From: an uncultured Chitinophaga sp.
GTDB taxonomy: Bacteria; Bacteroidota; Bacteroidia; Chitinophagales; LD1
NCBI GenBank assembly: GCA_964423405.1
Contig: CAYREY010000003.1
Location: 3,944 to 67,943, forward strand
Reading direction: 5' to 3'
Length of the DNA stretch: 64,000 bases
Of this stretch, positions 15,697-31,708 are shown piece after piece (the stretch's first letter is position 1; each line of letters begins with the position of its first letter). The notes beneath the pieces were generated by a model, which saw only the letters and a program-made list of their open reading frames with translations, was not told where the DNA came from and searched no databases. The translations under genes and the position numbers were made by a program.

Positions 15697-16614
15697 TTAT
15701 TTCAAATCTGGATAGTTATGGTCGATGTATTCCTTAAACCAAATTAGGACTTCGACTAAAGCAAGAACAGAACTTTGAAAAGCATATTTTGTAACTGGGT
15801 GATCGTAACGATGTGATAGCGTTTGGCAGGTATTAACTACCGAAGAAAACAACCAACTCACATGATCAGTAAAAATGGCTTTAGGCGCTACAATTTCTCC
15901 AGAGCCGAGATTAATTTTTGCTAAATCAACCTTTCTGCCGGACAAAAATAATTCTGCGGCTTTTAGGTTTAATCGCAAATTAGCTCCTGGCTTTAACAAA
16001 GCATCCGGCAAGAAAGCTCTATTGTCTATTGTATTTGCACGTTTAAGCATTTCTTCGACCAGACCACGAATAACATTGAAATTTGCCTGGCTATACGTCC
16101 GTTCTTCTAAACAGCCGAGTAAGGAAATCATTTTATCTTGCGAAGCAATAGGTAAATACCTACCACCAAATACACTGAAGGCCTCTGGATATTTAAGTTT
16201 TAGTTTCTGTTGAGGCAAATCTTCAATCAAGAATTGAAGTTTCCGCAACATAGGCTCCGCACCTTTAGCCTTATCAAAAATCAAATCACTTTCAGTTTCA
16301 GGAATTTGGTCGAAAAGACGCTCGAAATGGCCGGTGTTAATTACAAAAGGGACAAATATGTTTTGCTTTCGTAATTCCTTAATTTTTGCCACAGCAGTGT
16401 GAATGTGCTTGTCAGTTTCTTGTGGCATGTCTTCACTTAGCCATCCCCTTCCGTCTAAAATGATTCCAGAAAATTCTCTATGCCTTCGCTCCAGTTCAAT
16501 AAGGCCCTCTTCTAAACCCTGGTAGTGTTCAATCTCAAAGTTAAATCGGCTCGCGCTATCATACAACGAATCGGCCACACTCTTGTCATCATCTATTAGG
16601 AGGATTTTAATCAT
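15697..16614 (-). CDS. response-regulator receiver (REC) protein with an uncharacterised ~180-aa C-terminal domain
   Basis: N-terminal MIKILLIDDDKSVADSL ... FSGIILDGRGW ... VPFVINTGH fits the REC beta1/beta3/beta4 pattern with an acceptor Asp. Overlaps the kinase gene by 8 nt. Confidence 0.7.
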   Translation of the reverse strand: MIKILLIDDDKSVADSLYDSASRFNFEIEHYQGLEEGLIELERRHREFSGIILDGRGWLSEDMPQETDKHIHTAVAKIKELRKQNIFVPFVINTGHFERLFDQIPETESDLIFDKAKGAEPMLRKLQFLIEDLPQQKLKLKYPEAFSVFGGRYLPIASQDKMISLLGCLEERTYSQANFNVIRGLVEEMLKRANTIDNRAFLPDALLKPGANLRLNLKAAELFLSGRKVDLAKINLGSGEIVAPKAIFTDHVSWLFSSVVNTCQTLSHRYDHPVTKYAFQSSVLALVEVLIWFKEYIDHNYPDLK

Positions 16615-19438
16615 AGTTTTGATTGAAGGGCAAAGTTAAATCTAGTTGAAAATTACTATAATCCGGATGGCCAACCACAAGATTATTTCCACCATCTATC
16701 TGGCCGCCATGTAAATTTACTATCTGTTTAAGGATATACCCCCCGATTCCAGAGCCGCCTGATTCACCTGATTTTTTCCCAAACTCAAAAAAATCATCAT
16801 AAGAAAAGTCATTCTTTACGCCTTTGCCTGAATCATAATACGCAATGCCAATATTTTTATTCTTTTCCGGGTCTCCCTCAATGTATAAGTCGATAAACAA
16901 CTTATGGTCTTCAACTTTTCCATGTTTCATAGCATTTTCGACAATATTTCTGAAAAACTCCTGAATCAAGAATCTATCGATATCAACCCAAATAGGTTTC
17001 AGTCTTATACTTTCTACTGATGTGCTTCCTACGATTGCCCACTCACCATTTGTATCTAAAGCATTAATCTCAAGCGCAAAATCACGCTCAGGGAGATTAA
17101 TCTCACTTATAGTTTTTTGAATGAAAGTGACCAACTCAGTCTTCTCAAACTTTAATTCTCTTCTATTCAATTCGGTCAAACTTTTGATTTTGTCGAAAGT
17201 ATGTTCTGCAGAAAGAATACTATCATCCATTCTTGCTATCAGTTGCTCTAGGCTCCTCTTTTTAGAGATTTCCGAAGTCCAAGAAATGTTTTCTCTTGCG
17301 TCGATTGCAGAAGCCAGAAAATACTTCAAAGACTCAACATCATTCCGAATGGAACTAAATTGTTGAGAAAGACTATGACGTACTGTGGAGAGAATTGAAT
17401 ATTCACGTTTTCGGGCACCGCTTTTTTCCGCTAGCGTATCAGCTTCGCTTTGCTTTAGTCGATGTAAAATTTGAAGTTTTTCACGAATAATTTTATCCTG
17501 TTCATGAAGTGAGGGAATAGCCAAAGCAATATTCAAAAATTCGTTCACCCTCCAGGTTAGTTGCGCGGCACCAGTAAGAATATTCCTGAACTGTTTTAAG
17601 AAAAGATCCGAGCGAAATTCCTGAATTAAAAATTCAATACGAACTTTCGACTCATCAAGCGTGAATGCAAGTATATTAGGACTAATAACAATATTTCTTT
17701 CCTTGGCACTAAAAAATGTTGGCTTTAAGTTTTCGCCTATTCTCGCAACTAGTAAAACTGGTTGACTCAGATGCATTCCTTTTTGAGACCAGGTTTCCAC
17801 AGATGTTTCGGAAGCAAAAGATAATTCGAAATCACTATCAGAATTCTTCAAATCAGATATTTTAATAAAAGGCACCTTTGCATCATTCGATTCAATTTTC
17901 TCCTTAACTACCGTCAGGATCTCATTCAGCAAACAAATCTCTTTCCGCTCGCTTTTAAGTTTTTCTAATTCATGTTGGACTGGTGAAATGTATCGTTCCG
18001 GCTGAAGTATAGAATCAATTTCCAATACTTCAGACATTGTTACAACTCTTGAGTTAGAACTGTTATCAGGCTTTTCCAGCGACTCAAGAATATCCTCCGG
18101 GTGTTGAGTTATGACCTGGTTAGTTGACTCTAAAGTATACACCGAATTCAGGAAGTGTATTCGTCCCTTCTTGCTCTCTTCTTTGTTTTTATTCAGAATC
18201 AATAAATCCTGTTTAACTCCCGAATTGGATTTATCCATTCCCAAAGGCAAAGATATTACTGCCTCCACCCAATCTTTAGATACAAGTAGCTCGCGTAAAT
18301 AATAATGCGCTCCTGAGGATGCAGACAAAAGACTCTGAGGTACAACTACAAAGGCTATTCCGTTCGTCTTTAGCATAGAGGTTATCGCCTCAACGTATGC
18401 TAATTCTGCATTTTTAACACTACCTTGTAATGTTCGAAATTTAGAGTTACCTGTTGGGTCTATAATTACTCTTGAAGGTACAATACCAAATACGGCATCG
18501 TACGAGGCTTCACCGACCTCTGCCAATCTCAAGAAGTCATAGCAGAGAATCGTATTCTTGTTAGATACAAATAAATTCCTTAACTCCAGAAAAACTGCCT
18601 GTGCCTCCATATCAGTATGTAAATCAACTTGGTCTGTTGCTTTTATAGACAATTTGGATATTACGGGCGTTAGTTCAGTAAAGGCATTCAGCATTTTTCC
18701 TTGAATGTCCTTAAACTTGGCAATAGTTCCTATTAAATTCAATATGTAATCTGGAACTTGAATGCCACGGTTTGCTGACCCTTTGAGATAAAGACCTTTT
18801 ATTTTTTCGAATTCAGATAATAGCTTTGAAAGGGTTGATGTATCAAACTGATATGATTTGGTGATCACAAATGCCTCATACCAGACACTTGCATTTACGG
18901 CGTGCAATTGCATCTTAATGAATGCTTGCAGCCTTGGAGTGAGATTTCCATTTACAATCAAAGCATCAGTTAAAGAGCCTAGGCTCTGTTGAATTTCATT
19001 AGCATTAGCGTGTTCTACTTCAGCTAGCCTTAAGGCCAGTGTATTAGAACTACCACTTTCCCTCTGCTGCTCGGCAGAGAACCGTTTAGACATCGCAAAT
19101 AAAAATTTCACATAACAGGTCCAAAGACACAACTCAATTGTCAGTATACCCTCGCCCGCATGCTTAGACCGGGAAAACAAATTGAAGAGATCAGAAGTCA
19201 ATCTTTGATAATCATCGCTTCCTTCTGTAAGATTGGCTCTTAACTCATATAAATTTGAAATTTTATTCTGGAATAATTGCGGATAATTTTTGATTCGTGC
19301 ATGAATTTGTGAAGTAGGAACAGGCTTCCCATCCTTTCTCACATATAATTTTAACGCGTTAATCCTTTCCGCAATATCTTTTGCGTTGGAAATCTTCTTA
19401 GTCTTTAAAACTTCTACTATTGCTTCGTGTAATGTCAT
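16607..19438 (-). CDS. fusion protein: winged-HTH-like N-terminus, degenerate HsdM-like methylase fold, HsdS-like TRD, then histidine kinase (H-box + HATPase_c)
   Basis: Colinear with the HsdM in this window, but the catalytic motifs are replaced: DPSAGSG becomes NAFTELT, and NPPF becomes GIVPS. It retains FVVVPQSLLSASSG...VISLPLGM...LLILNK. The TRD-like region ends in IPSLHEQDKIIREKLQIL. The kinase part has STVRHSLSQQ, N-box FRNIVENAMKHG, YYDSGKGV, and GGSGIGGYILKQIVNLHGGQI. Confidence 0.7.
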   Translation of the reverse strand: MTLHEAIVEVLKTKKISNAKDIAERINALKLYVRKDGKPVPTSQIHARIKNYPQLFQNKISNLYELRANLTEGSDDYQRLTSDLFNLFSRSKHAGEGILTIELCLWTCYVKFLFAMSKRFSAEQQRESGSSNTLALRLAEVEHANANEIQQSLGSLTDALIVNGNLTPRLQAFIKMQLHAVNASVWYEAFVITKSYQFDTSTLSKLLSEFEKIKGLYLKGSANRGIQVPDYILNLIGTIAKFKDIQGKMLNAFTELTPVISKLSIKATDQVDLHTDMEAQAVFLELRNLFVSNKNTILCYDFLRLAEVGEASYDAVFGIVPSRVIIDPTGNSKFRTLQGSVKNAELAYVEAITSMLKTNGIAFVVVPQSLLSASSGAHYYLRELLVSKDWVEAVISLPLGMDKSNSGVKQDLLILNKNKEESKKGRIHFLNSVYTLESTNQVITQHPEDILESLEKPDNSSNSRVVTMSEVLEIDSILQPERYISPVQHELEKLKSERKEICLLNEILTVVKEKIESNDAKVPFIKISDLKNSDSDFELSFASETSVETWSQKGMHLSQPVLLVARIGENLKPTFFSAKERNIVISPNILAFTLDESKVRIEFLIQEFRSDLFLKQFRNILTGAAQLTWRVNEFLNIALAIPSLHEQDKIIREKLQILHRLKQSEADTLAEKSGARKREYSILSTVRHSLSQQFSSIRNDVESLKYFLASAIDARENISWTSEISKKRSLEQLIARMDDSILSAEHTFDKIKSLTELNRRELKFEKTELVTFIQKTISEINLPERDFALEINALDTNGEWAIVGSTSVESIRLKPIWVDIDRFLIQEFFRNIVENAMKHGKVEDHKLFIDLYIEGDPEKNKNIGIAYYDSGKGVKNDFSYDDFFEFGKKSGESGGSGIGGYILKQIVNLHGGQIDGGNNLVVGHPDYSNFQLDLTLPFNQNYD

Positions 19439-19987: not shown

Positions 19988-21340
19988 TCAATAAAGATTC
20001 AAAATACTCTTTGCTCTGGTTACCGCTGTATATTGATATTTTAAGGATGGCATATAGAAGGTATTTAAAAACACCTTTTCCCATTCACCTCCTTGCGCCT
20101 TATTACAAGTAATGCTATGTCCGTAACTCAAACGAATTGCTCCAACGTACTTATCGTCCTGCGGAAACATGGATTCACGAAATACAGGATTTTTAGCATA
20201 GCGCTCCTGCCTCAAACCATTTTCAGCGCCCATGGACAATGTTCCATTTGCAGCATTTAAGCAATCGAGCAGAATGTAATCCTCAATTTCAAATTCTTCG
20301 CCCTTCATATTTTTCGAGGAAATCTTTACCGGCACGAAATGCAGACCAGCAACAACTTCCATCCGGTCCATATCCACCTCTTTAACCACCACATGGTCAC
20401 CATTAAACAAGTTCTGCGCATTTCTACTCCAGTTTTGCGTCACAATCATTAAGTCTCCTGATTCAACAATAGCTGCATTGGAACCATAAATACGTTCACG
20501 CACTCTGTCGTTAAATACCTTATTACTTTTATGCGAACAAGCTATTGATACGCAATATTCTTGGCCGTATCTCTTAAAGTCCTCTACGTAATTAGTCACC
20601 GCACCTGAAAAATAGCTAAATTTAAAGCCTTCTAATCGCGGCTCGCCGGTATTATTTTCTATGGCTTTTCGGAGGTTTAGGGCATTCTTCATAATCTCGC
20701 TACCGTCCTCCTGGCGTTTTACTTCTGTCAAAAAATGAGATGTTCCTTTCCAGCTAAAGGTTTTCCGCAAAAATTCAGGCACCAATGCCATTGAATCTTG
20801 CTCATCAATCGGGGGCAATTGATTTCTATCGCCTAGAAAAACCACCTTGTTTTTCTGATTGCCATTTTTCACAAACTTCACCAAATCGCTCAATAATGAG
20901 TTTTCACTTTTCATCAGCGACAATTCTTTGTTGGTAGAATTCGCTGGAATCATTGAAGATTCATCCAGGATATAAACCGTAAATTTATCTACCGGATTTT
21001 GTTTCAGCCGATAATTGACTTCGCCGGTGGTTTTATTCACCGAAACGTTATAAATCATGGAGTGAATGGTGGAACTGACTGAATTTCCCTTCCGGCCTAT
21101 AATACGCGCCGCCCGGCCTGTAGGTGCCGCAATCTTATAACTTTGTTCCAACTTGTTTAAATAACCAATAAGGGCCGAAGTAATTGAGGTTTTTCCAGTG
21201 CCTGCTGCACCGCACAGAATCATAAAGTCATCCGTATTTTCCTGCTTCACGAACTCCGACATTGCCGTAAGAGCTTTCTTCTGTTCGGCAGTAGGACAAT
21301 CAAAATGTAAAAAATCAAGGATAGAAATTGCGGTGTTCAT
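19988..21340 (-). CDS. RecD/Pif1/TraA-like SF1 helicase (AAA_30 + UvrD_C_2-like)
   Basis: LCGAAGTGKTSITSAL (Walker A), VYILDESSMI (Walker B), LGDRNQLPPI, HSITCNKAQGGEWEKVF, YTAVTRAKSILNLY. Confidence 0.85.
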   Translation of the reverse strand: MNTAISILDFLHFDCPTAEQKKALTAMSEFVKQENTDDFMILCGAAGTGKTSITSALIGYLNKLEQSYKIAAPTGRAARIIGRKGNSVSSTIHSMIYNVSVNKTTGEVNYRLKQNPVDKFTVYILDESSMIPANSTNKELSLMKSENSLLSDLVKFVKNGNQKNKVVFLGDRNQLPPIDEQDSMALVPEFLRKTFSWKGTSHFLTEVKRQEDGSEIMKNALNLRKAIENNTGEPRLEGFKFSYFSGAVTNYVEDFKRYGQEYCVSIACSHKSNKVFNDRVRERIYGSNAAIVESGDLMIVTQNWSRNAQNLFNGDHVVVKEVDMDRMEVVAGLHFVPVKISSKNMKGEEFEIEDYILLDCLNAANGTLSMGAENGLRQERYAKNPVFRESMFPQDDKYVGAIRLSYGHSITCNKAQGGEWEKVFLNTFYMPSLKYQYTAVTRAKSILNLY

Positions 21341-21363
21341 GGCGTTTCGCTTTATTTACGCAG

Positions 21364-21398
21364 CAAACATCGAGACACCCGATGCAATCTATTTGCAT
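21364..21398 (-). promoter_or_regulatory. palindrome + TTTG module, copy 4, in the divergent helicase / WYL-regulator intergenic region
   Basis: In minus orientation: ATGCAAATAGATTGCAT-CGGGTGTCTCGATG-TTTG, 23 nt before the helicase ATG at 21340. On the plus strand the palindrome reads ...TCTATTTGCAT and ends 12 nt before the WYL gene ATG at 21411. TCTATTTG resembles a TAnnTTTG -7 box. Confidence 0.65.
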
Positions 21399-21410
21399 TT
21401 CGCCCCAATT

Positions 21411-22418
21411 ATGCCGAAGAACTTACATTTTGACATTCGAAAACAGCACCTAAATGAGTTACTGCGTGGCAAACAAGGCTACACCTTAGAGGAATTGATG
21501 AATCGGATAGGTGAAAAAATTAGCGATTACCGAAAAAACAGTAAAGGTGTAAGTAAAAAGACTATCCAGAATGACATCAGGTTCATGAAGGAAGAAGCCC
21601 TAAAAAAGAATGGCAAAATTGTTTGTATAAAAGGGAAATACAGGTATGAACCACCCGATTTCAATATTTATGACGTCCAGATTAGCCCCCACTCGGTTGA
21701 GAAAATAAAGCTGGCAATTTCTCTTTTAAAGCAGATAAAAGGACTTGATCTACACGAGGAACTTAAGGAAATATATGATGAACTGAAAATGCGAGTAACC
21801 GATGATCAGGAAGTCGACAACCGTTACATACAGTTTGATGTTAGGCCAGAATATCAAGGAAGCGAATATATAAGTGAACTGTTGGCGGCAATAACCGGCG
21901 AAACACCAATCAGTTTTGATTATCAGCCTTTTCTAGTTCCCGAAAAGTATAGAGTTATAGTTCATCCCTACCTGCTTAAGGAGTATAATAACAGATGGTT
22001 CCTGATTGGATGGCAGGAGGAAAAGAAAATAATTCAGGTTTATGCCCTTGACCGGATAAAGAGCAAAATTAAACATGAAGGCAAGTTCGAATTTTTCAAT
22101 TACCATAAATTCCACGCGGACACGTATTATAACGATGTGATCGGGGTCAGCATTCCACCAGAAGCAAAGGTTGAAAAGGTGGTATTGAAATTTAGACGTG
22201 AAAGGGTTCAATACGTGGAAACCAACCCCTTGCACCACAGCCAGAAACCGAATGGGCAAGACGAGGCTACAAAGTCGTTTCAGTATCAGTTAATTCCAAA
22301 TAACGAGTTGAAGGCCCAAATTCTGTATTTCGGTAGTGATATTGAGGTGATTGGGCCAGAAAAGCTGAGAGAAGATATTGCAGCAATTATTACAGAAGCA
22401 AACAAAAAGTATATTTAG
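21411..22418 (+). CDS. HTH + WYL-domain transcriptional regulator (BrxR/CapW-like)
   Basis: N-terminal HTH-like YTLEELMNRIGEKIS...KKTIQNDIRFMKEE. WYL-type core VIVHPYLLKEYNNRWFLIGW and YALDRIKS. I start it at the ATG at 21411. The track start at 21198 would overlap the divergent helicase gene and run through the palindrome. Confidence 0.8.
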   Translation: MPKNLHFDIRKQHLNELLRGKQGYTLEELMNRIGEKISDYRKNSKGVSKKTIQNDIRFMKEEALKKNGKIVCIKGKYRYEPPDFNIYDVQISPHSVEKIKLAISLLKQIKGLDLHEELKEIYDELKMRVTDDQEVDNRYIQFDVRPEYQGSEYISELLAAITGETPISFDYQPFLVPEKYRVIVHPYLLKEYNNRWFLIGWQEEKKIIQVYALDRIKSKIKHEGKFEFFNYHKFHADTYYNDVIGVSIPPEAKVEKVVLKFRRERVQYVETNPLHHSQKPNGQDEATKSFQYQLIPNNELKAQILYFGSDIEVIGPEKLREDIAAIITEANKKYI

Positions 22419-22420
22419 AA

Positions 22421-22455
22421 ATGCAAATAGATTGCACTCCTTAAGAGTTTATTTG
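22421..22455 (+). promoter_or_regulatory. palindrome + TTTG module, copy 5
   Basis: ATGCAAATAGATTGCAC-TCCTTAAGAGTTTA-TTTG. The TTTG ends 6 nt before the first arm of the inverted repeat that brackets the RT-upstream region. Confidence 0.65.
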
Positions 22456-22461
22456 TATCAC

Positions 22462-22732
22462 GTTCCTTGAATGCCTGCCGAAAATATTGATTGTGTCAGC
22501 TGGAAATTACCGAAAGGTGGATTTCAGATCGGCTGATGGCATTGGGAGTAATCCTGGTGCTGAATGTTTCTTTGGTCATTTTAATCGATAACTTTCGATA
22601 AACTGTATCAATAGAAACGATATATATGTTATGTTATAATATGATATATAATATAGCAATATCATTTGTTATAATTAATAATCATTGCGAATTGATTCAT
22701 ATACAAAGAATAAAAGGCAGGCATTCGGGAAC
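22462..22732 (+). ncRNA. candidate retron msr-msd-type non-coding RNA bracketed by a1/a2-like inverted repeats
   Basis: GTTCCTTGAATGCCTGCC (22462-22479) is complementary to GGCAGGCATTCGGGAAC (22716-22732): 11 bp perfect, a small internal loop, then 5 bp. The ~236 nt between have no ORF. They contain local hairpins, e.g. GCAUUGGGA-GUAA-UCCUGGUGC, and an AT-rich stretch. The 3' arm ends 8 nt before the RT ATG. This position and architecture match retron ncRNAs. Confidence 0.5.
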
Positions 22733-22740
22733 TTTTAATC

Positions 22741-25497
22741 ATGAGACCCGAAAACGAGCAAATTCTTTTTATTAAAAATGCTTTTCAAAATATGAAAAGC
22801 CCTGAAGACTTCCTTAAACTGCTAAATTATGCCAAACCCATAATTTACGGTATTAAGTCAGTGCCTTTCGGAATAAAACATCTTCGTTTTCATTCTAATC
22901 CGAAAGCCAACAGAAGAAGGTACGTTAGTTTTTCAATTCCCAAAAAAGCGGGTGGAATTAGAACCATACATGCGCCTAATAAGGGATTAAAATCAGTTTT
23001 GAAGTGCCTAAACATGATTCTTCAATGCGTTTACGAACCTCATAAAGCAGCTACCGGGTTCGTTTTAGATAAGTCGATTGTCACTAACGCCAAGCAGCAT
23101 ACCGGTAGTCTATACGTTTATAATATCGATTTGAAGGATTTCTTTCCAAGCGTGGACCAGGCAAGATTCTGGGGCCGTTTAAAGTATCATCCCTTTAACC
23201 TCAATGAGGAAAACAACCGTCTTGATATCGCTAACATAATAGGAGGCTTATGTTTTCAGGAAATGGAGGTAGAGCGAATCGAAGAAAATGGCAATTGGGT
23301 GAAAGTTGTGAAGAACGTTTTGCCTCAAGGAGCACCAACCTCCCCAACGATTACCAATATTATTTGCGAACGGCTTGACTTCTATTTAAGCGCAGTAGCC
23401 CGGCGTTTTGGCCTTAAATATTCTCGTTATGCCGATGATATTACTTTTTCTTCTATGCACAACGTTTATCATAAAGACGGGGACTTTATAAAGGAATTGC
23501 ATAGAATAATTGCGACGCAAGGCTTTCACATTAAAGAAAGCAAAGTACGCTTACAACGACCGGGCTACCGCCAGGAAGTAACCGGACTGATTGTGAATGA
23601 AAAAGTCAATGTAACGAAACGATACATAAAACGGTTGAGAATGTGCCTTTATCTATGGGAGCATTATGGCTATATAAAAGCAGAACAAATTTTCATTAAA
23701 GATTATATCGGAGATAAGGGCCATCTTATAAAAAGCAAGCCCAATATGGCCAACGTTATTTGGGGGAAACTGGAGTACTTGAAGATGGTAAAAGGCACGA
23801 AAGACAAAGTATATCTAGGGTTGTCAAGCCGGTTCTCGAAGTTAACCGAAACAAATGTTCCAGCAAAAGAAACAACTGATTTTAAAGAGGTAGAGAAAGC
23901 GAACATTCCCGATACCGTAAGTAAAATAGGCGATCCTCAAAAAGCGGAATGGATTACACCAGAAGAATATGGAAAGGTACTAACGCTTATTAAAGCCGAG
24001 GAAGCAGTAAAAATGGAGTATCAAAAGAGCTTTGAACAGGTTTACAATTTAACTGAAGGTAATTATCAGTATTTTAAAAAGAGTGGAGAACTGATTGCAA
24101 CAATGAATATTGAAATCTTAGACCAAAGACTTGTAGTCAATAAGTTTCAATTAAGTGATTTAGAAGGTCTTCCAGATTCAGTTAAAACTGCTCAGAATTT
24201 TGAGGAAAGATTAAATAGCCAGGTGTTGTGTCCTAATCGAGGTTTAATAAACAACAAGGCGATTGTTGAGTTGGCTATATTGGAAAATTTCGGAAACGCT
24301 TTTGCCGGAATTTTTAGGAAAATTGAAGAACCCGCGAATCCAACAAACTCAAAAATCAAGGTACTAATTATTCATACTGATAAAAGGACAGATACGTTAA
24401 GAAAAGATATTACCCTCCGCAAGGGAACACTTGTCCCTTATGAAGGGGAATTGGAAAATTCCGTTGAATCCAGCTTGAGTCAGCAACACAATCCTCTCAA
24501 TACGTTGAATGTTTTGAAACTGTTTCACGACAACAATAGCTATTTAAAATACACAACTCACAGTTGGGAATTTGGAATTGACGAATCAGATGACAATTAC
24601 TATAACTATAGGAATTACAGCGATTTTATTGGTAAGGCATTAGGCCAATGGAATAAAATCAAAAGAAAATACAAAAAATGGAATGCTGTTGACAAAAAGT
24701 TTGACTACACTATCCCGCCAAGCCTTTGGGAAAAAATAGAATTATTTCTCCTTTCAACCGATTTTAAACGACTCGGAAAAGATGGACACTTAGCTAAACC
24801 TGTTGGCTGGGGCAAACACCATGTTCAATTTGGTTGGTCCAGCATTGAATTATCTGAATGGGCAAAGTCCAATCCCAACGAAAATCCATTAAAATTTCCT
24901 TTACCCACCGAAAAGCAACTCGAGATTAACGGAAGAAAACTATACAGTTTTAAAGATATAACTATACTTTTTAAAAGCGAGATTGAGTTTAGAGAAGATA
25001 CAAATCATTTTTACAATTTAATTCTTCGTTTATGGGAGGACGTTTGGCATTTCGATATTAAATTAAATTCCGAAGAACTTGAAAAACTTAAGGGAGTTTC
25101 ATTGTTCACCGAAACTCAAAGAATTGAATCTGGTCTTAATAAAATTTTTGAGTCGTTTATCCAAGGTGGACGAACTACTTTCAACGAAGCGATAATACAG
25201 CGGAGTGATATCTTAATTGATCCTTATACAAATCCATATCAAGAAATTAGAATTACTCAAGTAGGTAGTTTTAGCGTTAGAAACCCCAAGGACTCTAACC
25301 TAGACGGCAACTCTGGTGATTTTGTAGACATCAAAAGATTATTCAACAGCCTATGTGATTGGTCAGTTGAATCTAAATTTGGTGACGGAAAAGCATATAG
25401 GTTAAGTTATCTTGACATTGCGAACGGGCCTTTTATTGAAGAAATCGATGTGTCTTCTGTAAGAGGATTTACTCATGTTTTAAAATTTTACCTATGA
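22741..25497 (+). CDS. retron-type reverse transcriptase with a ~580-aa C-terminal extension
   Basis: NAxxH (VTNAKQHTG), NIDLKDFFPSV, LPQGAPTSPTITNIICERLD, SRYADDITFSS (YADD), RQEVTGLIVNEK (VTG). At 918 aa it is far longer than the usual 300-400 aa retron RT. Confidence 0.85.
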   Translation: MRPENEQILFIKNAFQNMKSPEDFLKLLNYAKPIIYGIKSVPFGIKHLRFHSNPKANRRRYVSFSIPKKAGGIRTIHAPNKGLKSVLKCLNMILQCVYEPHKAATGFVLDKSIVTNAKQHTGSLYVYNIDLKDFFPSVDQARFWGRLKYHPFNLNEENNRLDIANIIGGLCFQEMEVERIEENGNWVKVVKNVLPQGAPTSPTITNIICERLDFYLSAVARRFGLKYSRYADDITFSSMHNVYHKDGDFIKELHRIIATQGFHIKESKVRLQRPGYRQEVTGLIVNEKVNVTKRYIKRLRMCLYLWEHYGYIKAEQIFIKDYIGDKGHLIKSKPNMANVIWGKLEYLKMVKGTKDKVYLGLSSRFSKLTETNVPAKETTDFKEVEKANIPDTVSKIGDPQKAEWITPEEYGKVLTLIKAEEAVKMEYQKSFEQVYNLTEGNYQYFKKSGELIATMNIEILDQRLVVNKFQLSDLEGLPDSVKTAQNFEERLNSQVLCPNRGLINNKAIVELAILENFGNAFAGIFRKIEEPANPTNSKIKVLIIHTDKRTDTLRKDITLRKGTLVPYEGELENSVESSLSQQHNPLNTLNVLKLFHDNNSYLKYTTHSWEFGIDESDDNYYNYRNYSDFIGKALGQWNKIKRKYKKWNAVDKKFDYTIPPSLWEKIELFLLSTDFKRLGKDGHLAKPVGWGKHHVQFGWSSIELSEWAKSNPNENPLKFPLPTEKQLEINGRKLYSFKDITILFKSEIEFREDTNHFYNLILRLWEDVWHFDIKLNSEELEKLKGVSLFTETQRIESGLNKIFESFIQGGRTTFNEAIIQRSDILIDPYTNPYQEIRITQVGSFSVRNPKDSNLDGNSGDFVDIKRLFNSLCDWSVESKFGDGKAYRLSYLDIANGPFIEEIDVSSVRGFTHVLKFYL

Positions 25498-26180
25498 AAA
25501 CGATTGCTCTAATAGATGATCGAAAATCCAGACAAGAAATTTATAGTGAAAGCATTGTTCAGGCACTTGCTCATTCCAACTTGGACAACATTCAAGGATC
25601 ACGGTTGATAGGGTTTAACGACAACATGAATAAACTGGAAACCTCAATTTTTGACAACTACAAGGTTATTATTATTCACAGATCCTTTCTTTTGCAATCT
25701 TACAGACTTGCTTTAAAAGATTATATCGAAAAGACGGAAAAGTACTTGGTGTTATTTTCTGGTGGAACTCCGGCAACGGTATTAAATGACAGAGTGCTTT
25801 CTATCAATTCCAAGGATTTATACTCGCATAAACTATATACATTTTTAGAAAATTCAATCAATAGCAGCATACCTAATCTACAGATTCTTGCGTTTGGAGC
25901 GAGATGGAAATTAAACTTACTCTACGGGTTGGTGGATAAAATTCAGAATTATCTAGCTCAAAATGCAGAAAAAAATGTCCCCATAAGCGTCATTAAACAG
26001 CATGTGGGGTATACATCATCTTTCCGCGATTTTTTCCCAAATAGCAAAGTCTTAGCGGAGTTTGAATCCATTTCCTCTGGAGAGATAATCAATAGCAACA
26101 AACAACTTTCCTTGATATTAAATGAATTGACACTAATTATTAATATCGAAATTCAATCAGATGAAACCTTTACTAATTGA
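25494..26180 (+). CDS. receiver-like (degenerate REC) protein
   Basis: MKTIALIDDRKS ... YKVIIIHRSFL ... YLVLFSGGTP follows the REC strand pattern, but His sits where the acceptor Asp would be. 4-nt overlap with the RT gene. Confidence 0.55.
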   Translation: MKTIALIDDRKSRQEIYSESIVQALAHSNLDNIQGSRLIGFNDNMNKLETSIFDNYKVIIIHRSFLLQSYRLALKDYIEKTEKYLVLFSGGTPATVLNDRVLSINSKDLYSHKLYTFLENSINSSIPNLQILAFGARWKLNLLYGLVDKIQNYLAQNAEKNVPISVIKQHVGYTSSFRDFFPNSKVLAEFESISSGEIINSNKQLSLILNELTLIINIEIQSDETFTN

Positions 26181-27870
26181 TTCGACAGATAGTAGGTACG
26201 GCGGCTTACTAAAATGGGAAAACAGCGTTTCTATTGGCTACAAGTATCCTGAAGAATCGGATTTAAAGGGCGATTTTTCAAATATTGATACTTTTATTAG
26301 CAATGGTCCCGCCAGCATTATTTCGCAGATAGCTTCCTGCGATTTCGAATACTACATCATTCCGCTTTCCTTAACGAATACATTATTAGATTTTTCCGGA
26401 ATTAGGCTGGCACAACATATAAGACTCACTAAGAGCCTAGAGGAAAAAAGATTGTTTCCTATAATTTTTGTTAGCTGGATTAATCCAATGCACGTCATCA
26501 AATTAGCTGAAGCAGGAGAAATAATTACTGCATCAGGTAATTATTTCTGCAAACCAACTAGAGATGCAATTGAGAATGCAATTAGCATGGGATTATTGCC
26601 CTGTAAGCAGGCTACTGATAAAATTAAAATCTCAATTCATAACCAATCAAACTCTCACCATTCCATAGCCAATGAGTGGTCGATTCTTACTCTATCGCAA
26701 TCGCTAGGCATCAGCGAAAAATTAAAAGAAACAACAGATTACTTCGAGGCTCAATTATATTTTAAATATCTGTTAACCAATTTTGACAACAATGTAAATA
26801 CGCCTCGCAACATTCCGCAATTGAATCGCACTGGAGAGAAGAAGAGGATCCTTTATATTGACGATGAATACAAAAAGGGCTGGGAGGAAATATTTGGTGC
26901 TTTTTTCTCAGGTCAGTCGAATATTAACTTTAAGTGTTTTGAGCCAACTAAGGATTTTACGGACTTTGAAACTTCGGACGACCTCATCGTTGAAATCGTC
27001 AAATTTGTAAGAAATTTTGACCCGGACATTGTTCTTCTTGATTTGCGATTGCATGACCAAGACTTCGAGCCAAACAGAGCAGCAAATGAAATGACCGGAT
27101 TAAAAATCCTCAAGGAAATTAAGGATAAGATTAATCCTGGCATCCAAATTATTGTCATTACTGCTTCAAATAAAGTTTGGAACTTAATCGAACTTCAAAA
27201 TTCAGGAATGGACTTTTTTGTTCTAAAAAATTCACCTGAAATAAATTCGGGTACTCAATCTATTGACCATTTTTTTTATCAATTTCAGGAAGTCTTAGAA
27301 CAAGCTTTCAAGAAATCATTCATTAAGGGATTAATATCTTCCTTATTAAAAATCAAAACGAAACTGTCAATAGTAAATGAGCCTGAAAATCCAGAATATA
27401 ACAAGCTGATTGCTTATTTGAAATCCCAAATCAATGTAGGAATCTCAATGCTGGGTCTAATTAATCCTCAAAAATCAGTTACGCTTGATATTGCCTTCTT
27501 AACATTTTATAATTTTCTTGAAAGTTTTAAAGGATACTATTTGCAGTATGACAAAAGCGACTACCGATATTATTTAGGCTTTGACAAAATTATAGTTCAT
27601 AGATACTCTTATGACAAAGGTCTGAAAGATGATGGGGAATTTGTTGCGAAGGATACATATGACAAACCTAGTTGGAGTTGCTTTCTAACTGCTCTTTTTT
27701 TCGATTATTTTAAGGTTATAAAAAGCCCTTACCAAGAAGCTGGTTCATTGAAGCAACTACAAAAATGGCGAAATGATTATATCCACTCAACCAAACGATT
27801 TTTCGACAAAAGTGAATTGACAATAATAATCTCTATTTGCGTAAGGGCATGTGACGCTATAAAAGAGTGA
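26161..27870 (+). CDS. multi-domain protein: degenerate receiver-like N-terminus, canonical REC domain, and C-terminal HEPN-like domain
   Basis: REC: KRILYIDDEYKKGW ... PDIVLLDLRLHD ... QIIVITASNK ... FFVLK. C-terminus: LQKWRNDYIHSTK fits Rx4H. 20-nt overlap with the upstream gene. Confidence 0.65.
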   Translation: MKPLLIDSTDSRYGGLLKWENSVSIGYKYPEESDLKGDFSNIDTFISNGPASIISQIASCDFEYYIIPLSLTNTLLDFSGIRLAQHIRLTKSLEEKRLFPIIFVSWINPMHVIKLAEAGEIITASGNYFCKPTRDAIENAISMGLLPCKQATDKIKISIHNQSNSHHSIANEWSILTLSQSLGISEKLKETTDYFEAQLYFKYLLTNFDNNVNTPRNIPQLNRTGEKKRILYIDDEYKKGWEEIFGAFFSGQSNINFKCFEPTKDFTDFETSDDLIVEIVKFVRNFDPDIVLLDLRLHDQDFEPNRAANEMTGLKILKEIKDKINPGIQIIVITASNKVWNLIELQNSGMDFFVLKNSPEINSGTQSIDHFFYQFQEVLEQAFKKSFIKGLISSLLKIKTKLSIVNEPENPEYNKLIAYLKSQINVGISMLGLINPQKSVTLDIAFLTFYNFLESFKGYYLQYDKSDYRYYLGFDKIIVHRYSYDKGLKDDGEFVAKDTYDKPSWSCFLTALFFDYFKVIKSPYQEAGSLKQLQKWRNDYIHSTKRFFDKSELTIIISICVRACDAIKE

Positions 27871-27871
27871 A

Positions 27872-27906
27872 ATGCAAATAGATTGCACTGAATTAATGTT
27901 TGTTTG
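27872..27906 (+). promoter_or_regulatory. palindrome + TTTG module, copy 6
   Basis: ATGCAAATAGATTGCAC-TGAATTAATGTTTG-TTTG, starting 1 nt after the stop at 27870 and ending 18 nt before the ATG at 27925. Confidence 0.65.
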
Positions 27907-27924
27907 TCAAAATTTTATGTCCTT

Positions 27925-30129
27925 ATGGATATCTTAAACTTCTTTCCTGATATTAATCTCTCCAGCGACCAAAAAGTCGCATTGGGAAAACTGGAGACAT
28001 TTCTTTCAGGGAACAGCCATGTGTTCATGCTAAAAGGTTACGCCGGAAGCGGCAAGACAACCATCCTTAAAGGCCTGGTAGATTATTTAATCTCCATTGA
28101 AAGACCTGTCTGTTTGATGGCACCCACAGGAAGAGCGGCTAAAGTAATCCGCGAAAAAACCGGAGAGGAAGCTTATACGATTCACAAGTGTATTTACAAC
28201 TACAATGCACTGGTAGAAGTTGAGGCAAAAAATGAAAATGAGGAAACCAGCTTCTATTACGCTTACAAGATTCGTAACAGCGACGATGTTGCCAACAAGA
28301 TATTTATTGTTGATGAGTCTTCAATGATTTCTGACACATTTAGCCAGGGCGAATTTTTTAGATTTGGAACAGGCCATCTGCTTGCTGATCTGATTCAATA
28401 TTCCCGCGTTAAAGAATTAACCAGTAATACCAAAATTATCTTTGTTGGTGATCCGGCGCAGTTACCGCCGGTTGGCGACAATTCATCAAAGGCCTTTGAC
28501 AAAACTTATCTGGCTGAGAAATTCGGCTTAATGTCCGAGGATGTAGAAATGAAAGAAGTTAAAAGATATGGCAGTGAAAGCGGCATTATGAGAGTCGCAG
28601 CAAGATTACGTAAGTCACTTACCTCTGGATACTTTAATAACTTTAATCTCAAACCAAATGAAGTTGACATCTTAAACCCTTCATACGAGGAGTTCCTGGG
28701 CATATATGGCAAAGTCAATGAGAGAAAAATAATCGTTGCATACAAAAATGAAACCTGTAAGGAATTGAATGCCGAAATACGGGAACTAAAGTACGGTTCC
28801 AAAGAACTTCCCATGCAAAAGGGAGACATTGTAATAATAGGGGCCAACAACTACAGAAAAGATATAATGAACGGTGAGTTCGCCGTGGTGAATGAGGTAG
28901 ACTCGGTTTCTACAGACCGTGAAATACCTTTGCGCGGAAAAAAACCGGTACTGTTGAAATGGAGAAATGTTGAATTGGTTTTTCCAGATGGAGAGACAAG
29001 CGGGAAAGTAGTAAGTGGTAAAATGCTGGACAATTTTCTGATAGGAGAAAATTTCCTTAAACCCGAGGAGATGCAGGCCATCTATGTAGATTTTAAGAAC
29101 AGGCATCCCAACCTAAAACCAAAAACCGATGAATTTAAAGACGCCATCATAAATGACCCATATTTCAATCCTATAATGCTGAAATATGGTTATGCCGTGA
29201 CCTGTCACAAGGCACAAGGCGGTGAATGGCCTCATGTCTTTACCATTTGGGACCATGATTTGCGGGAAGGTTATGATTGTTTCCATGACCCGCAAGGCAA
29301 ATCGGGCAAAACCAATCAAAATTTTTACAGATGGTCTTATACTGCTGTAACCAGAGCATCTGAAAAGTTATACGCAATAAACCCACCGCATTTCAACTCG
29401 TACTCCACTATGGCTTTTACAGATGAAGCTGTATTGAAGAGTTTAACGGAATTAACTGGGGCAAATCATCAGCCACAGGAAATAGAATTAGATGATTCAA
29501 TCCTATTAAGTCTTAACAAATATGGGTTGCTTGAGCAGAATTTGGCTATACAGGATCATTTTATAAAGGTAATGAACATGGTCTGCCAAAACAATATTGA
29601 AGTAATCGGTTGGGAAAAAGTAGTATACGAGGTTAGATACTATTTTAAGCGGGAAGCGAATACTGCCGCCGTGAAAACCTGGATAGATGGGAATAGCAAA
29701 TTCAACGGAAAATTTCTGGAAATCCCAGCAGGAACCAATTCAAAAGAGCTTGTGAAGGAAATCGCAACTCTCATTTCTGCATTGCCGAATGTTTCTATTA
29801 AAAGGAACTCATCTGAAACAATTATCACTAAATTAGAATTTGATGCGGAAGTAGAAGAAAAACTACCGTTTACACGAACTCTTTTTGAAGATATATCGGA
29901 AGCAATTGCTGAGTATGGAATATCCATTGAAGAAATAAATCATCAGCAATATAAAGAACGTTATACGTTTGTCAGAAATGGCGAGAAAGCCGAAATTGAT
30001 TTTGAATATAATCAACAGGGCTTCTTCGGCAGGGTAATGCCCTTGACTAAAAAATGCAACAGCGAAATTTTACTTTTAGATATTAAAGTAGCTGTTCAAA
30101 AACTTAAACAAGAAGCATATGCCGGCTAA
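27925..30129 (+). CDS. RecD/Pif1/TraA-like SF1 helicase with a ~240-aa C-terminal extension
   Basis: GYAGSGKTTILKGL, IFIVDESSMISD, VGDPAQLPPVG, YAVTCHKAQGGEWPHVF, YTAVTRASEKLYA. The C-terminal part contains two similar ~100-aa modules (IEVIGWEKVVYEVRYYFKRE... / ISIEEINHQQYKERYTFVRN...). I start it at the ATG at 27925, because MDILNFF parallels the other helicase's ISILDFLHF. The track uses the TTG at 27904. Confidence 0.85.
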   Translation: MDILNFFPDINLSSDQKVALGKLETFLSGNSHVFMLKGYAGSGKTTILKGLVDYLISIERPVCLMAPTGRAAKVIREKTGEEAYTIHKCIYNYNALVEVEAKNENEETSFYYAYKIRNSDDVANKIFIVDESSMISDTFSQGEFFRFGTGHLLADLIQYSRVKELTSNTKIIFVGDPAQLPPVGDNSSKAFDKTYLAEKFGLMSEDVEMKEVKRYGSESGIMRVAARLRKSLTSGYFNNFNLKPNEVDILNPSYEEFLGIYGKVNERKIIVAYKNETCKELNAEIRELKYGSKELPMQKGDIVIIGANNYRKDIMNGEFAVVNEVDSVSTDREIPLRGKKPVLLKWRNVELVFPDGETSGKVVSGKMLDNFLIGENFLKPEEMQAIYVDFKNRHPNLKPKTDEFKDAIINDPYFNPIMLKYGYAVTCHKAQGGEWPHVFTIWDHDLREGYDCFHDPQGKSGKTNQNFYRWSYTAVTRASEKLYAINPPHFNSYSTMAFTDEAVLKSLTELTGANHQPQEIELDDSILLSLNKYGLLEQNLAIQDHFIKVMNMVCQNNIEVIGWEKVVYEVRYYFKREANTAAVKTWIDGNSKFNGKFLEIPAGTNSKELVKEIATLISALPNVSIKRNSSETIITKLEFDAEVEEKLPFTRTLFEDISEAIAEYGISIEEINHQQYKERYTFVRNGEKAEIDFEYNQQGFFGRVMPLTKKCNSEILLLDIKVAVQKLKQEAYAG

Positions 30130-31708
30130 AGAGATAAAAGAATTACGAAAGTCAGGGAAACTCGACGAAGCCTATGCGCTTGCAATTAAGGAATTTGACG
30201 AGGCAAATGTGCCCACGCAAATTGTTAATTCGAAAAATGGTGAAACGATTAACGTAGAGCCAAACCTACTTTGGCAAAAGAGAAATTTAAGCTGGGTCTA
30301 CTACGATTATATAAAGTTAAGCTGCGAACCAGCAAAGTTTGAGGATTTCAAAACCAACCTCAAGAAAATAGTTGAGCTTAACTTACCGGAAGATGAAAAA
30401 ATTCTTTTTGATCAGCTTGCCTGGCAGATTGGCAAAATGCTTTTTGCTATAGGATTTAAGCAGCCAAAATTTGGTGAAGCCGTTTTTCAACCGGATTCTA
30501 ATCGAGTTCATGCAGACGAACTATTCGAAATTGCAAAGAAACTGTCCTTCACAAAGCTTTCAGAAGCATATAGTTTTCTTTTCAAGGCTTTTCATACAGC
30601 GTTTAAGCTTTCCCAACAATACGTTCAATTTGTAGATTGGTGGGGTCTTGAAAATTTTCGAAAAGAAGATTTTGAAAAAGAAAAATTACCGAATGGTAAA
30701 GATGTAATGTCTATCGCTGAACAGGCCTACATAGCCTATGCAAAGCATTTGTTACCCGAGAAGTCGAGCAGTTCTCAATTGGTAAATCCGGACAAAATAA
30801 AGGAGTTTATACCCAAGCTCGATAAAGTAATTGACGATCACCCAGAATTTCAATACCCTCCCTATTTTAAGGCCAAGCTACTTCTTGCTCTCGGTGATAA
30901 GGAACACATGCTATCAGCCTTGCTTCCCTTTGCAAGGAAAAAAATGAATGACTTTTGGGTATGGGAAGTTTTAAGTGAAGCAGTTAGTGCTGAGGACCAA
31001 ATTCTATCCTGCTATTGCCGGGCATTACTATGCAGAACCCAAGAAGAGTTTTTAATCGGCATCCGACAAAGAATAGCAGCCTTGCTTATTAGAAAAGAAC
31101 TTTATTCAGAGGCAAAAAATGAAATAGAATTACTAGTAGCCGCAAGAACCGAGAAAAACTTTAAAATTCCCGCGCCGGTTTCAAATTGGATGCAACAGGA
31201 TTGGTTTAAGAACGCTGCTGCCGCAGACAATAACACAGAATTTTACAAAAGGCATCAGGATGCCGCTGAAGGATTATTATTCTCAGATTATCCGGAAGAG
31301 GAAATTGTGGTTGATTTTGTAAATACGGACAAAAAAATATTAAACTTCGTTTCGACGGATGAACGCTCAGGTTTTTTTAAATATGATCGTTTCGCAACAG
31401 ATGTAAATATTGGAGACGTATTGAATGTTCGTTTCAAAGAAAAGAAACCAGAGGGGTTGCAGCAAATTTATTCGGTCTCCAAATCCACAGTACCTGGCGC
31501 TGCCGGTTCTTTATTGAAAACGATTTCCGGCAAAGTAAGAATTGGGGAGGGGAAGAACTTTGGGTTTGTTGAAAATGTATACATCCACCCAGCAACTATA
31601 AAAACTTTGAATCTCTCCAACGGACTTCAAATAAAAGGCACTGCGTTGAAGACCTATAACTCAGAGAAAAAAGAGTGGGGCTGGAAGTTATTTAAGGTCG
31701 AACCCTAA
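30119..31708 (+). CDS. helical-repeat protein with C-terminal cold-shock/S1-like OB-fold(s)
   Basis: C-terminus GKVRIGEGKNFGFVENVYIHPATIK...LQIKGTALKTYN resembles the CSD pattern (GFGFI...vFvH). A second, weaker OB-like segment comes just before it (SGFFKYDRFATDVNIGDVLNVRF). 11-nt overlap with the helicase gene. Confidence 0.55.
   Translation: MPAKEIKELRKSGKLDEAYALAIKEFDEANVPTQIVNSKNGETINVEPNLLWQKRNLSWVYYDYIKLSCEPAKFEDFKTNLKKIVELNLPEDEKILFDQLAWQIGKMLFAIGFKQPKFGEAVFQPDSNRVHADELFEIAKKLSFTKLSEAYSFLFKAFHTAFKLSQQYVQFVDWWGLENFRKEDFEKEKLPNGKDVMSIAEQAYIAYAKHLLPEKSSSSQLVNPDKIKEFIPKLDKVIDDHPEFQYPPYFKAKLLLALGDKEHMLSALLPFARKKMNDFWVWEVLSEAVSAEDQILSCYCRALLCRTQEEFLIGIRQRIAALLIRKELYSEAKNEIELLVAARTEKNFKIPAPVSNWMQQDWFKNAAAADNNTEFYKRHQDAAEGLLFSDYPEEEIVVDFVNTDKKILNFVSTDERSGFFKYDRFATDVNIGDVLNVRFKEKKPEGLQQIYSVSKSTVPGAAGSLLKTISGKVRIGEGKNFGFVENVYIHPATIKTLNLSNGLQIKGTALKTYNSEKKEWGWKLFKVEP

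Follow-up and report, generated by a model that had tools for sequence, protein, structure and literature searches.

Directly 5' of a reverse transcriptase (RT) gene in an uncultured Chitinophaga sp., two inverted repeats bracket an interval (22462-22732) that contains open reading frames of 20-49 amino acids only, none of them with coding signs in a small-ORF check, and the locus thus raises the question of what this interval encodes. Throughout, the window is the whole stretch of DNA that was analysed, 64,000 nucleotides in length. A preliminary description made from the letters of the window had likened the arrangement to the a1/a2 repeats of retron non-coding RNAs (ncRNAs), and this proposal has held in kind if not in every detail: a retron-type RT, a co-varying helix, two msr-like hairpins and a fixed position and strand 5' of the RT gene all agree with it. 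We find that the + strand specifies a structured RNA, consisting of a closing helix P1 with its continuation P1b, two hairpins and two conserved blocks, that is invariably coupled to a retron-family RT gene, and judging from these sequence features the interval probably encodes the msr-msd-type ncRNA of a retron. We read it in this way because its anatomy agrees with the working criteria for retron ncRNAs (PMC7736814, PMC10849725), which call for a1/a2 repeats exceeding 8 bp, for a G towards the 5' end that primes synthesis, and for hairpins adjoining the RT (PMC10849725). The terminal repeats of the window hybridise over 11 + 6 bp next to the RT gene, and the one to three hairpins expected of an msr have their counterpart in hairpins 1 and 2 (HP1 and HP2), which co-vary in 60 distinct sequences. 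The parts of the element and the gene that follows it are these, with MFE denoting the minimum free energy structure:

22462-22479, + strand: 5' arm of P1 (a2-like), GTTCCTTGAATGCCTGCC = GUUCCUUGAAUGCCUGCC, from the window sequence, a repeat finder and the MFE
22485-22488, + strand: 5' strand of P1b, UAUU, pairing with 22709-22712
22489, + strand: G in 'UUGA', directly 3' of P1b, the best candidate for a priming (branching) guanosine; G in 61 of 61 relatives
22495-22537, + strand: HP1, with an outer stem (22495-22502 with 22530-22537) and an inner stem (22503-11 with 22516-25) closed by a GAAA loop in the MFE
22538-22561, + strand: HP2, a 10-bp hairpin with a GUAA tetraloop, from the MFE and co-variation
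22561-22568, + strand: conserved block UGAAUGUU at the putative msr/msd boundary, nearly invariant in alignments A3 and A4
22569-22697, + strand: variable AT-rich centre, candidate body of the msd template (MFE)
22698-22708, + strand: conserved block CAUAUACAAAG (CAUAnACAAAG), ending in G22708 directly before P1b, candidate first-templated bases
22709-22712, + strand: 3' strand of P1b, AAUA, pairing with 22485-22488
22716-22732, + strand: 3' arm of P1 (a1-like), GGCAGGCATTCGGGAAC = GGCAGGCAUUCGGGAAC, with a T-run next to it and the RT ATG 8 nt on
22741-25497, + strand: 918-residue protein, a retron-type RT (residues ~55-385) fused to a HisKin-conflict domain (582-917), from Pfam, PADLOC and PDB matches

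Both arms lie exactly where the preliminary description had placed them, in coordinates as well as in sequence, and the 3' arm does end 8 nt before the ATG at 22741. The helix of 11 bp with five further pairs that it had drawn is borne out by 11 perfect pairs plus 5-6 more: the P1 core pairs 22469-79 with 22716-26 and was recovered independently by the repeat finder, and beyond a one-base bulge the outer part of P1 joins 22462-67 to 22727-32 by 6 bp, including one G.U, in the MFE. By itself this repeat is only modestly unusual, because 3.3% of 300 dinucleotide shuffles of 22419-22740 also contain an inverted repeat with 11 or more consecutive perfect pairs. Folding of the whole interval, a check that the preliminary description had proposed, gave -97.1 kcal/mol (z = -8.3) for the + strand with the closing helix inside the optimum, and a much weaker fold for the opposite strand (-63.2 kcal/mol, z = -4.0).

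The strongest evidence comes from comparison across loci. A scan of one genome per species yielded 80 loci encoding relatives, almost all of them from Bacteroidota; cultured hosts among them include Pedobacter heparinus, Mucilaginibacter rubeus and Chryseobacterium gregarium (L030, L031 and L037). Searched with nhmmer, the spacer of the window matched 35 of these 80 loci with E-values of at most 0.11 (at most 0.002 for 33 of them), and every match lay directly 5' of the RT gene on the RT strand. The arms of about 60 loci could be extracted with a pair of conserved words as anchors, GTTCTTTGAA and A[CT]AAAGA[AG]. Arm sequences diverge widely among these loci, and their complementarity is kept, as in the following pairs:

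window: 5' arm GAATGCCTGCC, 3' arm GGCAGGCATTC
L040: 5' arm ACAACCGAAAT, 3' arm ATTTCGGTTG
L035: 5' arm AACCGTAGT, 3' arm ACTACGGTT
L056: 5' arm TGTCCGGCAG, 3' arm CTGCCGGGCA

The closing helix was tested both by duplex energies of cognate versus non-cognate arms and on constructs without the centre. Over the variable inner 15 nt, cognate arms reach a mean of -16.0 kcal/mol compared to -7.6 kcal/mol for non-cognate ones; the cognate arm is the best partner of 54 in 31 cases, and the cognate median is attained by 0.6% of distant non-cognate arm pairs. Alignment A3 (MAFFT) comprises 35 constructs from which the variable centre had been cut out, and from it RNAalifold arrived independently at the inner closing helix and at the HP1 outer stem. 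When the structure given above is imposed on A3, 88.7% of cells are paired (75.1% in shuffles) and 136 cells carry changes on both sides (40 in shuffles), a number that none of 500 shuffles equalled; sliding the partner by 1-3 columns brings pairing down to 35-50%. Both-side changes affect 13 of the 17 pairs of P1. As judged from these alignments the closing helix is real, conserved and co-varying in about 50 related Bacteroidota loci, and the cross-locus comparison is the decisive evidence against chance. Absence of a conserved bracketing helix from homologous loci was what the preliminary description had named as fatal to its proposal, and the opposite is found.

Past a small internal loop, the closing helix continues as the 4-bp helix P1b. 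This extension is paired in 35 of the 35 sequences of A3 and co-varies, with UAUU/AAUA replaced by UUUU/AAAA in 11 sequences and by CAUU/AAUG in 1, and with U.G wobbles in 4. The A that follows G22489 is likewise the same in 61 of 61 aligned relatives, and opposite the invariant G22489 stands another invariant base, G22708. In characterised retrons it is the a1/a2 stem whose end carries the priming G, and copying most often begins at a G (PMC10849725); G22489 and G22708 fit this geometry. The preliminary description had pointed to G22480, directly after the 5' arm, as the branching guanosine. We reject this base because its position is variable (T 24, G 20, C 8 and A 7 among the 61 aligned relatives) and usually paired within the helix in relatives (A3 pair 23-162); from its place at the end of an a1/a2-type stem, G22489 appears to be the better candidate. 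A third closing helix present in the MFE, UUGU/ACAA (22491-94 with 22703-06), was also discarded: it is paired in 67% of cases, the level of shuffles, and shows no co-variation.

The two hairpins that follow are likewise conserved in structure. HP1 carries a conserved internal UUCAGAUCGG, and its outer stem is 98.9% paired in the 60 distinct sequences, with both-side changes at 7 of 8 pairs. HP2 is the GNRA-capped hairpin that had been noticed before, its loop being GUAA; it shows compensatory changes relative to locus L001, and all four base pairs at the foot of its stem change on both sides across the 60 sequences. Counted together, the HP1 outer stem and the foot of HP2 reach 95.9% pairing compared to 72% in shuffles, with 172 double changes, in an alignment that was fitted to a covariance model and is biased towards structure to that extent, though the HP1 stem is also supported on the MAFFT alignment. 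A scan had flagged HP2 and its tail as terminator-like, an assignment that we dropped as the tail is not T-rich in relatives. The covariance model of this 5' module, R1 (113 positions), was searched on both strands over 967 kb and found one match per locus in 61 of 80 sources, all of them on the RT strand and ~130-370 nt before the RT start; its one significant match in the 64-kb window lies at 22460-22570 (90 bits). A divergent variant of the element, which starts with GATCTTTGAA or GGTCTTTGAT, occurs in the Bacteroidales/Rikenellaceae loci L064, L073, L075, L078 and L079. It escapes R1, and the cognate arms of L075 and L078 are clearly complementary.

Between the hairpins and the 3' arm, two conserved blocks enclose a centre that varies freely. 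The block UGAAUGUU is, by its position, a candidate stop region of reverse transcription. On the other side, the CATA and AGA of the block at 22698-22708 are invariant or nearly so in A3, and in most loci the 3' anchor word precedes the RT start by 37-50 nt. The centre of the window folds into 4 short hairpins (22566-22618, 22623-50, 22652-73 and 22680-97; longest helix 12 bp) in the MFE, and the centres of 47 relatives are 68-163 nt long with a mean GC content of 0.26 and usually 2 hairpins. Neither a common fold nor a long msd stem nor any alignable conservation was found across these 47 folded centres. Of the AT-rich segment that the preliminary description had considered as the msd stem, the palindrome-bearing stretch itself is present, but a conserved long stem was not found among relatives. 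The pattern suggests a freely drifting body between conserved signals, as would be expected of a template with a start site at one end and a stop site at the other. The centre of the window also holds direct repeats, ATATGTTATGTTATAAT at 22624-22640 and ATATCATTTGTTATAAT at 22659-22675, and others occur in L022 (CTTATATTATTATGAA, twice) and L060 (AGCTATGTA, twice); they are conserved between loci neither in sequence nor in position.

The protein encoded next to the element carries all the marks of a retron RT in its N-terminal part. Pfam matches on the 918-residue product are RVT_1 (1.3e-20) and HisKin-conflict (PF22561; 1.4e-51), the latter over its full length, and no protease domain was found by Pfam. 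PADLOC models match the RT part only, with RT-Protease_XI in first place (2.7e-96; model positions 29-331 of 506) before RT-TIR_XII (1e-90) and RT-Toprim_I-C (1.4e-83) in a range of 1e-80 to 1e-96, and the retron models of NCBIfam match as well (Retron_TIR 2.2e-78, Ec67 family 4.1e-69). Scores of retron models lie at 260-320 bits. The NCBIfam model for Drt2 (UG2) reaches 28.8 bits over ~80 residues, compared to a cut-off of 390. All nearest structures in the PDB are retron RTs, with Ec67 (8.6e-33) and Ec86 (7e-27) followed by Ec78, Ec83 and Eco8. Hallmarks of retron RTs are NAxxH in region X, VTG in RT7 and the YxDD active site (PMC7736814), and the corresponding N116-A117-K-Q-H120, V280-T281-G282 and Y230-A-D-D233 are invariant in 21 homologues. 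From its motifs and matches, the RT is of the retron type. In the HisKin domain, H607 is a candidate site of autophosphorylation. The combination of RT and HisKin is common, with more than 3000 proteins at E <= 1e-10 and both Pfam domains in 120 of 120 among the matches listed. An identical public protein (P0001) has 901 residues and starts 17 codons downstream (22792 instead of 22741). The ATG at 22741 is probably the true start and the public annotation too short, because relatives are conserved from residue 1 on; M1 and F15 are invariant.

Upstream of the element, the window presents a promoter, a palindrome and a regulator gene:

21411-22418, + strand: WYL/WCX-domain protein (Pfam WYL 1.8e-11, WCX 5.4e-09)
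22422-22436, no strand assigned: palindrome TGCA-N7-TGCA, TGCAAATAGATTGCA, upstream of the -7 box
22448-22455, + strand: Bacteroidota-type -7 promoter box TTTATTTG, with TTTG at 22452-55

The -7 box of Bacteroidota has the consensus TAnnTTTG, and the TTTG that had been reported 6 nt before the 5' arm is found as described. In relatives, the TTTG of this box stops 4-6 nt short of the 5' arm; relative to the start of R1, which lies 2 nt 5' of the arm, it ends 2-5 nt before in 40 of 59 relatives. The box would place the start of transcription at ~22461-22463. A scan for sigma-70 promoters and terminators was uninformative here, a sigma-70 model having been set against a Bacteroidota promoter. The motif TGCA-N6-10-TGCA recurs in 43 of 59 related loci, mostly ending 23-25 nt before the start of the RNA model, and is a plausible candidate operator, possibly of the adjacent WYL regulator. 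From its domains, the WYL/WCX protein is likely the transcription regulator of the module; a WYL gene is found upstream of the RT gene in 54 of 82 loci, mostly in divergent orientation, and co-directional in the window. At the other end of the element, a T-rich run (CTTTT, CATTTTT) 3' of the arm is seen in most relatives, 8-20 nt 5' of the RT ATG, and at 22733-22740 in the window; it could be a terminator-like signal or merely the AT-rich translation start region of Bacteroidota.

Several observations weigh against an msr-msd. Rfam, including its retron msr models, gave zero matches at E <= 1 over 21000-26000; classical retrons have one or two long, stable msd stems, and no conserved stem of this kind was found in the 47 relatives; and the folds of their centres are weak (mean z-score -1.6, just 30% below -2). 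In addition, the candidate G22489 is preceded by AUU or UUU and not by the frequent UUA, the helix abuts the RT start codon in a manner compatible with a purely regulatory role, and the grounds for the wider chain, which would lead from the kinase through a receiver (REC) to a HEPN-like motif in a downstream gene product, are the names of domains, one invariant Asp and one motif. A rival reading takes the structure for a mere cis-regulatory leader, a 5' untranslated region of the RT-HisKin operon in which P1 and the T-run would control read-through or the start of RT translation and no DNA would be made. The short distance between the 3' arm and the start codon (8 nt in the window, and for most relatives ~10-30 nt up to the RT start), the T-rich run that follows the arm in most relatives, the WYL regulator and conserved palindrome just upstream and a centre without a strong conserved fold would all suit such a leader. 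Yet an RT with all retron hallmarks belongs to enzymes that require a cognate template RNA, the terminal inverted repeats, invariant G at the helix end, two hairpins and variable body make up the anatomy of a retron, and a simple occlusion switch would hardly account for the conserved single-stranded blocks UGAAUGUU and CAUAnACAAAG. We consider a mere leader unlikely, and regulatory and template roles can coexist.

It is similarly improbable, in our view, that the RNA serves as a template in a non-classical way, either by reverse transcription only upon infection, as proposed for type VI retrons, or by repetitive or template-jumping synthesis as in DRT2 and DRT9. The lack of a conserved long msd stem and the short direct repeats in the variable centres of several loci (the window, L022 and L060) would agree with such a use, and type VI retrons have been reported not to accumulate multicopy single-stranded DNA (msDNA; bioRxiv 10.1101/2025.10.22.683967). 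These repeats are not conserved, however, the similarity to Drt2 is marginal (28.8 bits, far below both its cut-off and the retron models), and classical priming has just the geometry seen here, with an invariant G on an a1/a2 helix. The view that the inverted repeat is a coincidence of AT-rich intergenic sequence, or represents the termini of a small mobile element, would gain some credit from the shuffles in which a repeat of this length arises, but is refuted by comparison and retains hardly any probability at all: the arms co-vary with complementarity kept in about 50 loci, the element is single-copy in 64 kb, its position and strand are fixed relative to the RT gene, and conserved G.U pairs are a mark of RNA rather than of a DNA repeat.

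If the interval is indeed an msr-msd, transcription would begin at the Bacteroidota -7 box (~22461-63) and probably run on into the RT gene. The RT would bind HP1 and HP2 and prime DNA synthesis from the 2'-OH of G22489 at the top of P1b. Synthesis would begin opposite G22708 or A22707, copy the CAUAnACAAAG block and the AT-rich centre, and halt near the conserved UGAAUGUU. The msr would then span ~22462-22568 and the template ~22569-22708, and reverse transcription would yield an AT-rich msDNA some 100-140 nt long.

Downstream of the RT gene follow two further genes of the module:

25494-26180, + strand: conserved 228-residue protein of unknown fold that overlaps the RT stop codon; homologues directly after the RT gene in 37 loci
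26161-27870, + strand: candidate effector, a 569-residue protein in which iREC and a receiver precede a HEPN-like motif (R537-N-D-Y-I-H542) at the C-terminus

The 228-residue protein has no family match in Pfam, PADLOC or NCBIfam. A guess by eye that it might be a receiver-like domain was abandoned (hhalign probability against the REC protein family 2.9%), and its possible counterpart is AC006, an abundant cluster without annotation in the 2026 preprint bioRxiv 10.64898/2026.05.14.725207. Pfam matches on the 569-residue protein are iREC (6.8e-18), an inactive receiver domain, and Response_reg (3.2e-07). Each of 42 homologues retains the phospho-acceptor Asp of the receiver, D294, and 41 of the 42 keep the RNxxxH motif, which is typical of HEPN RNases; HEPN_RiboL-PSP matches with E = 0.12, below threshold, so that the HEPN assignment is tentative. 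Beyond this gene, the window continues with TOTE (PDC-M16) genes at 27904-30129 and 30119-31708. A helicase with a TBP-TOTE domain is present in 37 of 82 loci and a protein combining DUF7017 with S1/CSD-TOTE in 20 of 82, and the TOTE genes follow either the HisKin, 228-residue and REC genes or, directly, a shorter RT (for instance in L019, L051, L054, L055 and L061). Such recurrence would point to a functional connection and not just to shared residence in an island. The literature searched held no paper on TOTE, PDC-M16 or iREC, and an RT-kinase system is not among the subjects of two eLife papers written by the group from which these Pfam names come.

On the other side of the module, the - strand encodes a 450-residue helicase (19988-21340; PDC-M16A 2.7e-89), a relative of the TOTE helicase that lacks the TBP domain. 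Homologues with 54-57% identity directly follow the RT gene in L040, L041, L048, L049, L056, L070 and L080. Further out on the same strand, a 943-residue protein (16607-19438) combines N6 DNA methylase and HATPase_c (GHKL ATPase) domains. As this adds one more defence-like gene, the region looks like a defence island.

How this locus relates to known systems can be stated with some precision. TXI_C2like denotes type XI-like retrons, confined to Bacteroidota, that typically have a WYL gene at offset -1, a class defined computationally (Toro, May 2026, bioRxiv 10.64898/2026.05.14.725207). For these protease-less, WYL-associated retrons the preprint predicts an msr/msd-like RNA up to ~390 bp upstream of the RT, with three stem-loops and a1/a2-like flanks, and its Table S2 lists HisKin-conflict, iREC and WYL among the neighbour domains of Bacteroidota 'typeXI' entries (bioRxiv 10.64898/2026.05.14.725207). 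One entry of that table has a truncated contig id (OMZM0100...) with the accession prefix of our related locus L079. Our locus shares with this class the Bacteroidota host, a protease-less type XI-like RT with a C-terminal extension, the WYL neighbour and an upstream RNA of three stem-loops with a1/a2 flanks, all at the level of description. Through this description and Table S2, the element of the window very probably belongs to the already predicted TXI_C2like class. The class itself is not new; the RT-histidine kinase architecture is experimentally untouched. The kinase, P1b, the invariant G, the UGAAUGUU and CAUAnACAAAG blocks, the REC-HEPN-like partner and the TOTE linkage, all present here, do not appear in the main text of the preprint.

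Compared to the classical msr-msd of Ec86 and Ec67, the element has the same place 5' of a retron RT, the same terminal inverted repeats, one to three msr hairpins followed by a template, and a conserved G at the stem end, with G likely the first templated base. It differs in the absence of any sequence or Rfam similarity, in a closing stem that is broken by an internal loop before the 4-bp extension, in a G that follows AUU or UUU instead of UUA, and in an AT-rich msd part with several short hairpins in place of one long stable stem. Likeness to type XI, an RT with a trypsin-like protease (Mestre et al. 2020), extends to the RT part only, for which RT-Protease_XI is the best PADLOC match; the C-terminus here is HisKin-conflict without a protease, which sets the protein apart from canonical type XI. 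Mestre et al. did not detect an ncRNA in type XI (PMC7736814), and the experimental census of Khan et al. includes some validated ncRNAs from clade 8/type XI. With type IX our locus has in common the linkage of a retron RT to a protein with an HEPN-type Rx4-6H motif (Mestre 2020), but the HEPN-like motif here, tentative as its assignment is, stands behind iREC and REC domains and is paired with an RT-fused kinase.

The presence of a kinase on the RT and of a receiver on a putative RNase suggests, as a hypothesis, signalling by phosphotransfer. More speculatively than for DNA synthesis, the complex of msDNA and RT might control the fused histidine-kinase domain, and the kinase might signal to receiver D294 of the iREC-REC protein; in the course of a phage infection, the HEPN-like C-terminus of this protein would serve as an RNase. 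We tentatively entertain, while holding it to be rather doubtful, the notion that the retron is the sensor arm of a phosphorelay in which the RT bound to msDNA or ncRNA gates the kinase, phosphorylation of D294 turns on the HEPN-like RNase and the 228-residue protein is possibly an intermediate or inhibitor; many genomes would wire the module instead, or also, to the TOTE (PDC-M16) helicase and S1/CSD pair. If this were true, the retron would signal by phosphotransfer and not by toxin sequestration.

For an uncharacterised and very common lineage of Bacteroidota retrons, the analysis provides a testable map of the ncRNA with its closing helix, likely priming G22489 and first template base 22708, which also marks the hairpins for protein recognition and a variable centre that can be replaced. 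Tests of msDNA synthesis need such a map, as would attempts to turn the element into a DNA-writing tool for Bacteroidota. Beyond the RNA, the fusion of RT and histidine kinase with its receiver-HEPN-like partner points to an unstudied mode of retron signalling.

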